Source of the DNA: a virus | Length of the DNA: 20,374 nt | IMG/VR virus record: IMGVR_UViG_3300029305_004297 | Reading direction: 5' to 3' (one strand) | Shown here: piece by piece, positions 9,796 to 11,136 of the stretch | Layout of the letters: every line of letters begins with the position of its first letter | How positions within the stretch are numbered: position 1 is the stretch's first letter | Made by a program: the position numbers and the translations under genes | Notes under the pieces: model-generated | Seen by the model: the letters and a program-made list of their open reading frames with translations, nothing else | Databases searched by the model: none | What the model was told of the DNA's origin: nothing

Positions 9796-10139
9796 TTTTT
9801 GGTAGAACTAACAGTTTTAATAGAGTTGTTATTAACGGTAAATCTATTGATTGTACTGGAAGAAATATTTCTATCCAGAACGGCGAAGTTATAATCGATG
9901 GAAAAGTGATTCAATCCAGTATTGAACGTGACATCAAAGTGGTTGTATATGGTGACGTAAATAAGGTTGACTGCGCTGGCTCTGTTGAAGTGCATGGCAA
10001 TTGTGGTTCCATTGATTGTAGCGGGTCTTGTAAAGTGGATGGCAATGTTAATGGCGACATTGATGCAAGTGGATCTGTGACTTGTGGTAATGTCTCAGGT
10101 GATATTGATTGCAGTGGAAGTGTAAGATGTAGAAGATAA
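9792..10139 (+). CDS. bactofilin-like (DUF583 / CcmA-type) repeat protein
   Basis: GTG start overlaps the upstream stop (GTGA). There are about six tandem repeats of the G-x-V-x-G-D/N-V-x-x-x-x-(C/A)-S-G-S-V type (VYGDVNKVDCAGSVEVHGNCGSIDCSGSCKVDGNVNGDIDASGSVTCGNVSGDIDCSGSV), as in bactofilin beta-helix proteins. Confidence 0.55.
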   Translation: MIFGRTNSFNRVVINGKSIDCTGRNISIQNGEVIIDGKVIQSSIERDIKVVVYGDVNKVDCAGSVEVHGNCGSIDCSGSCKVDGNVNGDIDASGSVTCGNVSGDIDCSGSVRCRR

Positions 10140-10154
10140 CAATACAAAATTAAT
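10138..10154 (+). repeat. conserved 17-nt motif, copy 6 (AACAATACAAAATTAAT)
   Basis: Begins with the last two bases of the stop TAA at 10137-10139. Confidence 0.8.
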
Positions 10155-10161
10155 ACATATT

Positions 10162-10185
10162 GAGGAGGTTTAATAAATAATGTAA
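10162..10185 (+). other. orphan strong SD (GAGGAGG) followed by a start-stop mini-ORF (ATG-TAA)
   Basis: GAGGAGG 10162-10168, ATG 10180-10182, TAA 10183-10185. The next long ORF (HNH) begins 37 nt later with no SD of its own. Confidence 0.4.
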
Positions 10186-10221
10186 AAGATACAAAGTGGT
10201 TCAATTATTTATAAATAGTTT

Positions 10222-11136
10222 ATGGGTAAATTTGTAGACATGGCTGGCTGGATTATGAAAGAACATGGCATTCCTGATAGCAAAATTACAGTGTTGCGTA
10301 GGGTTGATGACTATGTTAGTCCAAAAGGATATCGTGTAGCTCAATGGGAATGCAAATGTGAATGTGGAAATATATTTGTTTCGCCAGGTGGCAACATAAG
10401 AAGTGGATCTGCAAAAAGCTGCGGATGTTTCCAAAAGGAAGTTGCTCGCAATATGGCGTTCAAAGATCTTACAGGCATGGTGTTTGGTAGATTAACTGTT
10501 TTATATCAAGCAGACGATAAAATAGAAGATGATGGAACTCATAAAATGATGTGGCACTGTTCGTGCGAGTGTGGCAATGAAAAAGATATTCTTGGAGCAA
10601 GTCTTTCATATGGGGCTACAACAAGTTGCGGATGTGTCCATAAAGAAAAAATTTCACAACTTAATGAATCATTAAGAGAATACGATGAAGATAAAAATAT
10701 TGTCGGCAAAATTTGTTGTCTGTGCAAAAGAATGCTTAGTATAGATAATTTTTATAAAAACAGCAGCACAGCAGATGGATATCATGGTACATGCAAATAT
10801 TGTTCCGTACATTCTTTTACAGGTAGATATAATACTTACAAAAGAGGTGCAAGGAGTCGAGGATTAGACTTTCTGTTATCACAAGACGAATTTGATATTA
10901 TAACACAAAAGCCATGTTATTATTGTGGAGAATATGAAAAGCAATATTTTGACGAACCATATTCTGGAATTGATAGGGTAGATTCATCAAAAGGATATGA
11001 TATAGAGAATGTGCTTCCGTGTTGTGAAACATGTAATAGAATGAAATTAGATTATAACACCTCGTTTTGGCTCAATAAAATGCAAAAAATTATCAAACAT
11101 ATGAAGGAGAAAGAAGATGGACAAGCAAAAGATTGA
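10222..11136 (+). CDS. HNH homing endonuclease with tandem CxCxCG...SCGC zinc-ribbon modules
   Basis: The C-terminal HNH motif is GIDRVDSSKGYDIENVLPCCETCNRMK. Two N-terminal repeats WECKCECGN...SCGCF and WHCSCECGN...SCGCV are typical of phage free-standing HNH endonucleases. No SD precedes ATG 10222, so the start is uncertain. The 3' end overlaps the ligase start by 20 nt. Confidence 0.65.
   Translation: MGKFVDMAGWIMKEHGIPDSKITVLRRVDDYVSPKGYRVAQWECKCECGNIFVSPGGNIRSGSAKSCGCFQKEVARNMAFKDLTGMVFGRLTVLYQADDKIEDDGTHKMMWHCSCECGNEKDILGASLSYGATTSCGCVHKEKISQLNESLREYDEDKNIVGKICCLCKRMLSIDNFYKNSSTADGYHGTCKYCSVHSFTGRYNTYKRGARSRGLDFLLSQDEFDIITQKPCYYCGEYEKQYFDEPYSGIDRVDSSKGYDIENVLPCCETCNRMKLDYNTSFWLNKMQKIIKHMKEKEDGQAKD

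Follow-up and report, generated by a model that had tools for sequence, protein, structure and literature searches.

The window analysed here, a stretch of 20,374 nucleotides (nt) of viral DNA from IMG/VR record IMGVR_UViG_3300029305_004297, carries a free-standing homing endonuclease gene (HEG) in front of ligA, the gene of an NAD-dependent DNA ligase. The HEG is preceded by a leader in which a strong Shine–Dalgarno sequence (SD) serves a start codon that is followed directly by a stop codon, i.e., a start-stop. With moderate confidence, positions 10138–11136 (coordinates given without a locus label are window positions) are read as one mobile cassette, consisting of the free-standing HEG and its own conserved 5′ translational control module. 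The start-stop leader probably serves to keep production of the nuclease low. The putative module would comprise a 17-nt motif, GGAGG with AUG-UAA at a distance of exactly 11 nt, 29–39 nt of AU-rich sequence able to form a weak helix of 6–9 base pairs (bp), and the SD-less AUG of the HEG. In the window, the locus is laid out as follows.

9792–10139, + strand: upstream gene, encoding a bactofilin-like repeat protein of 115 amino acids (aa; phrog_3163) and flanking the insertion on its left
10138–10154, + strand: 17-nt motif AACAATACAAAATTAAT with zero mismatches, overlapping the upstream TAA, first part of the inserted cassette
10162–10168, + strand: strong SD GAGGAGG, whose core GGAGG (10164–10168) is invariant in all leaders
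10169–10179, + strand: 11-nt spacer TTTAATAAATA, of the same length in all three leader sequence variants
10173–10181, + strand: 5′ arm AUAAAUAAU of a conserved AU helix, made of the 3′ end of the spacer and the A and U of the start-stop AUG
10180–10185, + strand: start-stop mini open reading frame (ORF), ATG at 10180–10182 and TAA at 10183–10185
10186–10203, + strand: variable loop, differing in sequence and length among leaders (16–24 nt between the 6-bp core arms)
10204–10212, + strand: 3′ arm AUUAUUUAU of the AU helix, ending 9 nt 5′ of the HEG AUG
10222–11136, + strand: free-standing HEG, 304 aa, ATG start, no SD
11104–11119, + strand: ligA translation initiation region, AAGGAG + 7 nt + ATG, within the last HEG codons, which came with the cassette
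11117–13045, + strand: NAD-dependent DNA ligase gene ligA, a mosaic gene

Each leader element named in the original prediction, i.e., the motif, GAGGAGG and ATG-TAA, was found where it had been placed. The upstream ORF closes with TAA at 10137–10139. The duplex energy with the 3′ end of 16S rRNA is −12.7 kcal/mol for the start-stop ATG at 10180 and −9.5 kcal/mol for the ligA ATG at 11117, and ordinary genes of the window range from −7.5 to −14.5 kcal/mol. At the ATG at 10222 the value is +1.0 kcal/mol, in agreement with the earlier statement that the nuclease ORF has no SD of its own. No earlier nuclease start is possible because of an in-frame TAG at 10216–10218, and the N-terminus MGKF(I/V)DM(T/A)GW is conserved in homologues. 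The nuclease ORF, ending at 11136, overlaps ligA by 20 nt and holds the ligA SD (AAGGAG, 11104–11109) inside its 3′ end, so that it does supply the ribosome-binding site (RBS) of the ligase gene, as had been proposed. No sigma70-type promoter or terminator was predicted in 10100–10220, and an Rfam search at permissive thresholds gave no match for the window or the leader. Two further ideas were rejected. A conserved block, TTATTTATARA, is not a repeated promoter-like box, having 2 exact copies in the window, neither at a gene start. Nor do the start-stop and the HEG form one frame through readthrough or frameshifting: the distance from SD to HEG varies (51–61 nt) without keeping to multiples of three, and there is a second in-frame stop at 10216.

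The relatives compared were syntenic loci from IMG/VR and a metagenome collection, labelled with L-numbers. No match to a 3.8-kb nucleotide query was found among 50,697 phage records, and the nearest isolate, Clostridium phage Amboise, is detectable at the protein level only (DnaE 47% identical). The nearest cultured relative infects [Clostridium] innocuum, and the host is therefore probably a low-GC Firmicute. The window belongs to an uncultured human-gut phage lineage, one related contig being labelled "human gut metagenome".

The comparison with HEG-free relatives bears out the claim that a mobile free-standing endonuclease gene was inserted in front of ligA. In HEG-free L004, the same upstream gene (87% identical in aa sequence) is followed directly by ligA, with the junction ...GGGGATAAaGTG, and homology to the window stops at ~10135. 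The metagenomic contig L077 combines an L004-type upstream gene and an L004-type ligA (82–84% nt identity) with a 775-nt insert, which runs from the upstream stop and motif to the ligA ATG. A second clean pair is provided by L013 and HEG-free L161, whose sequences share 96.7% identity over the 1077 nt that end at the upstream TGA and diverge abruptly after it. HNH-less relatives with the same gene order, the check proposed for this claim, thus exist (e.g., L004 and L161), and in HEG-free L002 the YqeY-like gene is likewise followed directly by ligA. In a census of 80 phage ligA loci, an endonuclease gene stands in front of ligA in 8 and is absent from 72; L158 and L195, with ORFs of 183 and 216 aa 5′ of ligA and no start-stop leader, are outside the HEG-occupied count. 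The occupants of the site come from three nuclease families: PacI-like HNH, a second HNH type (L010; phrog_374/3377), and GIY-YIG with NUMOD1/3 (L003, L011 and the L138 group).

The insertion leaves the upstream ORF intact, and ligA gains a new SD and ATG from the 3′ end of the cassette. The site is thus polymorphic among close relatives, no gene is interrupted and the expression signals of the neighbours are preserved, as expected of a HEG. Signs of invasion and decay are also seen, i.e., degenerate copies and the alternation of HNH and GIY-YIG genes at the 5′ site of ligA. In the HNH copy of L001 (5103–6011), a conserved Trp codon reads as an in-frame stop (TAG for TGG, ~5433), and an intact, otherwise identical twin (P0013) occurs in other samples; the copy is either a decaying gene or the product of a sequencing error. 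The nuclease copy of L077 has lost one N-terminal module. Taken as a whole, the comparison indicates that the ORF is a real free-standing homing endonuclease gene with a predicted cleavage function.

HNH paralogues were also observed at at least two other sites, i.e., between helicase and DnaE genes (L004:10038–10691; L112:4001–4930) and before a KTI12-like kinase gene (L114:1063–1941; L198:291–1178). At these sites the 3′ end of the paralogue overlaps the start of the next gene, and the leader is an ordinary motif plus SD. The window's own helicase–DnaE junction (14784–14818) is empty of any HEG.

The leader was originally thought to have once served ligA, and a motif–SD leader abutting ligA was expected in HNH-free relatives. 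The distribution of the leader contradicts both. In HEG-free relatives ligA is leaderless, and its GTG lies 1–3 nt after the upstream stop or overlaps it. In both clean pairs, the inserted DNA includes motif, SD and start-stop, and none of the 72 HEG-free loci has an SD, ATG and stop within 1.5 kb 5′ of ligA. The collections were scanned with an 18-mer probe, GGAGGTTTAATAAATAAT, that makes no assumption of a start-stop, its last base preceding the G of the ATG. Of its 16 matches in IMG/VR, 7 were true leaders and 9 unrelated sequences; of its 82 matches in the metagenome collection, 76 were unrelated, and 4 further distinct leaders were obtained. Wherever downstream DNA was available, these leaders were followed by an SD-less endonuclease gene and then by ligA, and the scans of the two collections found no leader fused directly to ligA. 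Over 795 kb of phage DNA, a covariance model for the leader matched only these leaders.

When HNH homologues were instead retrieved by protein sequence, a route that takes no account of the leader, six more loci 5′ of ligA were obtained, five of them with a start-stop. The leader is canonical in four (L107, L108, L197 and L199) and diverged in L110, which reads GGAGG-TTAAGTAAACA-ATGTAA; the sixth, L196, has an ordinary SD without a start-stop. A third leader variant, AAGGAGG-TTAAGTAGATA-ATGTAA, was found in the GIY-YIG group of the ligA census (L138, L147, L155 and L189). Of the eight HEG loci in the census, seven have ATGTAA and one has ATACAA. Over the 18 distinct HEG loci 5′ of ligA, SD–11 nt–ATGTAA is present in 16 (14 of them verified, L012 and L041 ending before ligA), ATACAA in one (L003) and a conventional SD in one (L196). 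This leader is common to the three nuclease families, PacI-like HNH, second HNH type and GIY-YIG with NUMOD. It was found at none of five HNH paralogues of other sites, which have ordinary SDs (−9.7 to −13.2 kcal/mol); in the fifth of these, in L003, the SD lies further 3′ of the motif. Judged from these comparisons, the start-stop leader came with the nuclease cassette rather than being a leftover of the ligase gene. In the distant phage L183, ligA is directly preceded by the motif, AGGAGGTG, 5 nt and ATG, with 1 nt between motif and SD and 5 nt between SD and ATG; this arrangement is the generic leader of the phage group, and its spacings are unlike those of the start-stop leader.

Conservation of the leader exceeds that of the gene behind it. 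Seven of eight HNH loci have exactly the same 22 nt between the start of GGAGG and the end of TAA (100% identity), and the first 450 coding nt of these loci are only 63–80% identical. Two diverged variants (L110 and the L138 group) have changed 3–4 of the 11 spacer bases and kept GGAGG, the 11-nt spacing, ATG and TAA. The occurrence of the start-stop at 16 of 18 loci, in these two variants as well, is beyond neutral expectation, with the limit that the samples are related and the events not independent. The element has an SD at a functional distance and a start codon followed directly by a stop, the 11-nt spacing being somewhat long but constant. Over 16 leaders, the mean anti-SD duplex energy is −12.2 kcal/mol at the start-stop and −2.1 kcal/mol at the HEG AUG, and the HEG AUG has no SD in any of the 16 leaders tested, as expected of a downstream start that depends on coupling. 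The distance from the stop to the HEG AUG is 29–39 nt, which is longer than in classic coupling and at the edge of the cited scanning windows (PMC2988022).

The sequences show the anatomy, the presence/absence polymorphism, the association of leader and HEG 5′ of ligA, and the conservation of the leader above that of coding sequence; ribosome loading at the start-stop, together with the route and efficiency of initiation at the HEG AUG, is inferred. The sole SD of the leader would put a ribosome on AUG-UAA, where initiation would be followed by immediate termination without translocation. As no translocation takes place, the contact between SD and anti-SD would stay unbroken. The HEG AUG would then be used by a minority of ribosomes that relocate 29–39 nt downstream, via termination-reinitiation or scanning, and the AU helix may assist this relocation by looping out the intervening segment. 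The nuclease, which is potentially toxic, would as a result be translated at a low level and without dependence on the gene upstream. The 3′ end of the cassette gives ligA a fresh SD and ATG, which would make ligase expression independent of endonuclease translation. The earlier suggestion that the start-stop may help the SD-less HEG, by loading ribosomes or by allowing reinitiation, fits the conservation data.

The AU helix was recognised from two conserved, mutually complementary blocks, AUAAAUAAU and AUUAUUUAU, around a segment of variable sequence and length. In an alignment of 14 leaders, 98% of the cells are paired, and the substitutions seen are one compensatory change from U-A to C-G (L110) and one from U-A to U-G (L041). 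The helix is not an RBS-sequestering hairpin of the T4 type: there is no SD to bury, the helix is weak, and the folding of the window's leader gives z = 0.43. Pairing of the 3′ arm with the start region of the HEG, as an alternative helix, is predicted in 6 of 15 leaders only and was rejected as a general feature. As a separate observation, L110 (3939–4003) has the same 7 nt, AACAAUG, at the start-stop and at the HEG start, and its changed 3′ arm, AUUGUU, can pair with either.

Several points weigh against translational control as the function of the leader. At least one GGAGG + 5–12 nt + ATG + stop is held by 149 of 1000 dinucleotide-preserving shuffles of the window (15%), and the significance of the start-stop is therefore judged only from its conservation in relatives. 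That near-identity could itself come from recent spread or gene conversion instead of selection. In L003 (4997–5057) the ATG and the TAA are both lost (ATACAA), with the remainder of the leader and a 319-aa GIY-YIG ORF intact, and at L196:1483–1501 a member of the same HNH family (P0022, 55% identical) at the same site has an ordinary SD, AAGGTGG, and neither motif nor start-stop. The device is therefore dispensable. The 29–39 nt between stop and start are long for efficient reinitiation. The AU helix is weak, with 6–9 A-U pairs only and −3 to −8 kcal/mol; the leader of the window folds no better than shuffled sequence (the z = 0.43 given above), and the covariation is a single event, 31 of 500 column shuffles reaching the observed value. 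Moreover, the leader follows the 5′ site of ligA and not the nuclease family, for which the simplest account may be common descent of the cassettes with swapping of the ORF between flanks that are conserved. The leader may thus reflect common descent of ligA 5′ cassettes rather than a general need of HEGs. A second mini-ORF, ATGCAATAA, was noted in L003 and L197, 9 nt further on.

The ligase gene itself is a recombination mosaic. Its 5′ 1.14 kb (to ~12259) has no nucleotide similarity to HEG-free L002 and L004, homology to which resumes exactly at 12260, and the 3′ 0.78 kb is 77–78% identical. At the protein level, residues 1–381 are nearest to L001 (73%, vs. 44% to L004) and residues 382–642 nearest to L004 (79%, vs. 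50% to L001). In L013, compared with L161, the HEG is likewise accompanied by a replaced 5′ part of ligA, and among the relatives the 5′ 1.1–1.5 kb of ligA is a mosaic whose partner changes independently of the remaining genome. This pattern is consistent with HEG-driven co-conversion, or with selection for resistant alleles. HNH and GIY-YIG cassettes share the ligA initiation sequence ...GGAGGTAYAAAGAAGATG. The initiation region was brought by the cassette; in HEG-free relatives, ligA has a GTG whose use is coupled to the gene before it. These findings mark the 5′ end of phage ligA as a recurrent landing site of HEGs and a recombination hot spot.

An explanation at the DNA level is regarded as unlikely. 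The leader would be a shared cassette end that provides homology for swapping endonuclease ORFs between co-infecting phages, comparable elements being the PeSL regulatory cassettes that T4-type phages have. In this reading, the start-stop would be incidental, and the near-identity of the leaders would stem from recent spread or gene conversion. Unrelated ORFs, HNH and GIY-YIG, do share their 5′ leader and have a similar ligA initiation region behind them, the adjoining 5′ two-thirds of ligA is a recombination mosaic, L003 lost its start-stop without visible decay of the ORF, and a lone start-stop is not improbable by chance. However, incidental sequence would not be expected to keep GGAGG, the spacing and ATGTAA through 3–4 changes in 11 spacer bases, as both diverged variants did, and the HEG AUG is consistently SD-less only where the start-stop leader is present. 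In addition, the HEG-free recipients are leaderless, so that the leader is no homology arm for homing into empty sites.

The same low probability is assigned to a split RBS, a variant to be taken seriously, in which the AU helix would loop out the start-stop and bring the SD within ~6–13 nt of the HEG AUG, the start-stop acting as a competitor. Here, with comparably little likelihood, an open helix would give unproductive initiation at AUG-UAA and a closed helix initiation at the HEG. The two conserved complementary blocks with a loop of variable length agree with such a switch, as do the inclusion of the A and U of the start-stop AUG in the 5′ arm, the position of the 6-bp core 3′ arm, which ends 9–15 nt (mostly 11–12 nt) before the HEG AUG, the one compensatory change, and the retention of the helix in L003 despite the lost start-stop. 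However, the helix consists of A-U pairs alone and is very weak, and its folding energy does not rise above that of shuffles. The spacing between 3′ arm and AUG is not clearly less variable than the length of the loop, and in the 6 of 15 leaders mentioned above the HEG start region is an alternative partner for the 3′ arm. A hairpin between SD and start codon could shorten the effective distance here as in T4 gene 38 and gene 25. The T4 hairpins, however, are stable and have no competing start-stop, whereas the helix here is A-U only and of marginal energy.

STAB-SD elements are known in low-GC Firmicutes, among them those of Bacillus; the leaders compared are those of cryIIIA, ermC and aprE. 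By analogy, a ribosome parked on the SD and start-stop could shield a poorly translated HEG–ligA message from 5′-to-3′ decay, for which the very strong SD without a productive ORF and the probable low-GC Firmicute host would speak. We consider an mRNA stabiliser of this kind quite improbable: the element lies within a polycistronic region and not necessarily near a 5′ end, HNH paralogues elsewhere and L196 do without the leader, and the SD-less HEG AUG would be left unexplained.

A more speculative form of the proposed control, to which we give a slim chance, takes the start-stop as a launch pad. The ribosome, tethered by an intact SD–anti-SD helix, would slide or hop across the AU-rich gap to the HEG AUG, and the start-stop would, if this is true, be a launch pad and not a sink. 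The layout would be that of the T4 gene 60 bypass, in which the take-off codon stands before a stop, a stem-loop is present, the landing codon matches the take-off codon and a mobile endonuclease element is associated; unlike that bypass, this one would be peptide-independent. That such a device is a portable module of HEG cassettes used by three nuclease families is given the same slim chance. The AACAAUG repeat of L110, either copy of which the 3′ arm can pair with, fits the launch-pad idea.

The weakest alternative is that motif, SD and ATG are the ancestral ligA leader, a HEG having inserted just after the ATG and left a functionless two-codon ORF; the restriction of the start-stop leader to the 5′ site of ligA whatever the nuclease family, its absence from HNH paralogues elsewhere, and the motif, SD, 5 nt and ATG right before ligA in L183 would speak for such a relic, but it is highly improbable and, judged from the comparisons above, essentially refuted, since the nearest HEG-free relatives are leaderless, the leader is within the indel in both clean pairs, the scans of IMG/VR and the metagenome collection and the 72 HEG-free loci gave no leader followed by ligA, ligA owns an SD and ATG inside the HEG 3′ end, and a neutral remnant would neither hold 100% identity beside coding DNA at 63–80% nor keep ATGTAA and the 11-nt spacing in diverged variants.

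The nuclease under this putative control was originally labelled HNH. The ORF has no match in Pfam or NCBIfam, and its PHROG profile matches are HNH endonuclease (4e-28) and endonuclease VII (9e-23). In a profile search against PDB, residues 164–278 match the HNH restriction enzyme PacI (E = 2.3e-7), and the assignment to HNH is based on the PHROG families and this homology. The AlphaFold2 model (pLDDT 88), the PacI match and the PHROG families together support a ββα-metal fold of the catalytic domain, which is C-terminal (residues ~164–280, nt ~10711–11061), PacI-like and of the HNH superfamily. Two N-terminal CxCxCG...SCGC modules are located at residues ~44–69 and ~113–138. A search of 5.8 billion proteins gave 1796 relatives, dozens of them full-length with 40–99% identity on contigs of 150–174 kb. 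An earlier locus search with the single HNH sequence was set aside as not useful, having returned only distant matches of the N-terminal module (L005–L008).

An alignment of 39 relatives has the invariant C-terminal signature CxYCG...G(I/V)DR(I/V)(D/N)S..GY...N...CCxxCNxMK. It includes two Cys4 zinc sites (C165, C168, C191 and C194; C232, C235, C267/C268 and C271), invariant in the 39 homologues, whose cysteines line up with those of PacI. The Asp and Asn at the metal-ligand positions, D251 and N272 (CxxCN), are invariant and aligned with VDR and CNR of PacI, and G258-Y259, also invariant, lines up with its EGY. The canonical first histidine of H-N-H, the general base, is absent from all 39 homologues, which have D251-R252 and not DH or HH. 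In PacI, an active ββα-metal nuclease, zinc is bound at two Cys4 sites, Asp and Asn are the metal ligands, and a tyrosine takes the place of histidine as general base (PMC4081073). From this alignment, the ORF is predicted to encode a nuclease, as a PacI-like member of the HNH superfamily without the canonical first histidine. The aligned stretches are GIDRVDSSKGY...N...CCxxCNRMK in the phage protein vs. GVDRSDSFEGY...N...CxxCNRIK in PacI, with "DR" in both where classical HNH enzymes have "DH" or "HH". In contrast to PacI, the phage protein has ~160 additional N-terminal residues with the two CxCxCG...SCGC modules, and its gene is free-standing, without a methylase partner.

The 17-nt motif AACAATACAAAATTAAT that opens the cassette occurs in 10 copies in the window, all on the + strand, vs. 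0.4 expected by chance. Across the phage group, most related loci have 2–6 copies, on the coding strand only and none on the minus strand, usually 0–9 nt 5′ of an SD and often beginning in the upstream TAA. Copies 5255 and 18191 form the −35 plus spacer of perfect sigma70-type promoters, and copies 2058, 2764 and 13116 lie 0–16 nt downstream of perfect promoters. Candidate roles are an RNA element preceding the SD, a processing site and a factor-binding site. The copies and the other features of the window are listed below. The genes listed between 5213 and 9795 are replication-module neighbours, and in this region relatives carry FolD or OGG-like genes.

2058, 2764, 5255, 7056, 9316, 10138, 13116, 14783, 18191 and 18544, + strand: copies of the 17-nt motif
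2016–2043, 2720–2747, 5253–5281, 13088–13115 and 18189–18217, + strand: five perfect (12/12) sigma70-consensus promoters
5203–5235: strong intrinsic terminator, directly before the promoter at 5253
5213–7057: RecJ-like DHH protein
7091–7516: phosphatase-like protein
7517–8752: 411-aa protein, whose L107 counterpart has a PARP catalytic domain
9349–9795: YqeY-like protein

The endonuclease insertion itself is ordinary. The conserved portable start-stop leader is akin to two known kinds of control, the translational down-regulation of HEGs and bacterial start-stops. A conserved portable start-stop leader common to unrelated HEGs was not found in the full-text literature on start-stops and HEG regulation in the collection searched. 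HEGs need slight expression without harm to their neighbours, and throttling of free-standing ones is known for a few T4 cases only. Here, a compact portable leader, which combines a strong SD with a start-stop, an AU helix and a start codon lacking an SD, appears to throttle unrelated nucleases in uncultured human-gut phages. If confirmed, it would be a natural, evolutionarily conserved start-stop serving as a gene-control element in a bacterial-type 5′ leader, and a simple part for lowering translation in Firmicutes.

Among the closest known systems are the seg and mob HEGs of T4-like phages. Half of the free-standing HEGs of T4 lack a translation initiation region and are believed to rely on an upstream ORF, through coupling or scanning, and others are under the control of RNA hairpins (PMC2988022). 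The T4 genes and those studied here alike sit between conserved genes of DNA metabolism without disrupting them, are present or absent among close relatives, include several members without a recognisable RBS, and show recombination mosaicism of the neighbouring genes. In the phages studied here, however, the upstream ORF is not a host gene whose end is used but a dedicated two-codon start-stop on the cassette, the weak hairpin sequesters no SD, one leader is used for HNH and GIY-YIG genes at one site, and the host is probably a Firmicute.

Genes can be attenuated by ribosome-binding sites that lie upstream of them (PMC13285730). Functional start-stops have been reported in E. coli (bioRxiv 10.1101/520783), and start-stop termination-reinitiation has been described in the same organism (PMC9841429). 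Like the phage element, the start-stops of E. coli (yecJ and hslR; narQ for reinitiation) have an SD at a working distance and a start codon followed by a stop, and they bind ribosomes and modulate a nearby ORF (bioRxiv 10.1101/520783; PMC9841429). They lie within genes or overlap the main start, whereas the phage start-stop lies in a 5′ leader, 29–39 nt 5′ of an SD-less gene, is conserved across many phages and is tied to a mobile element.

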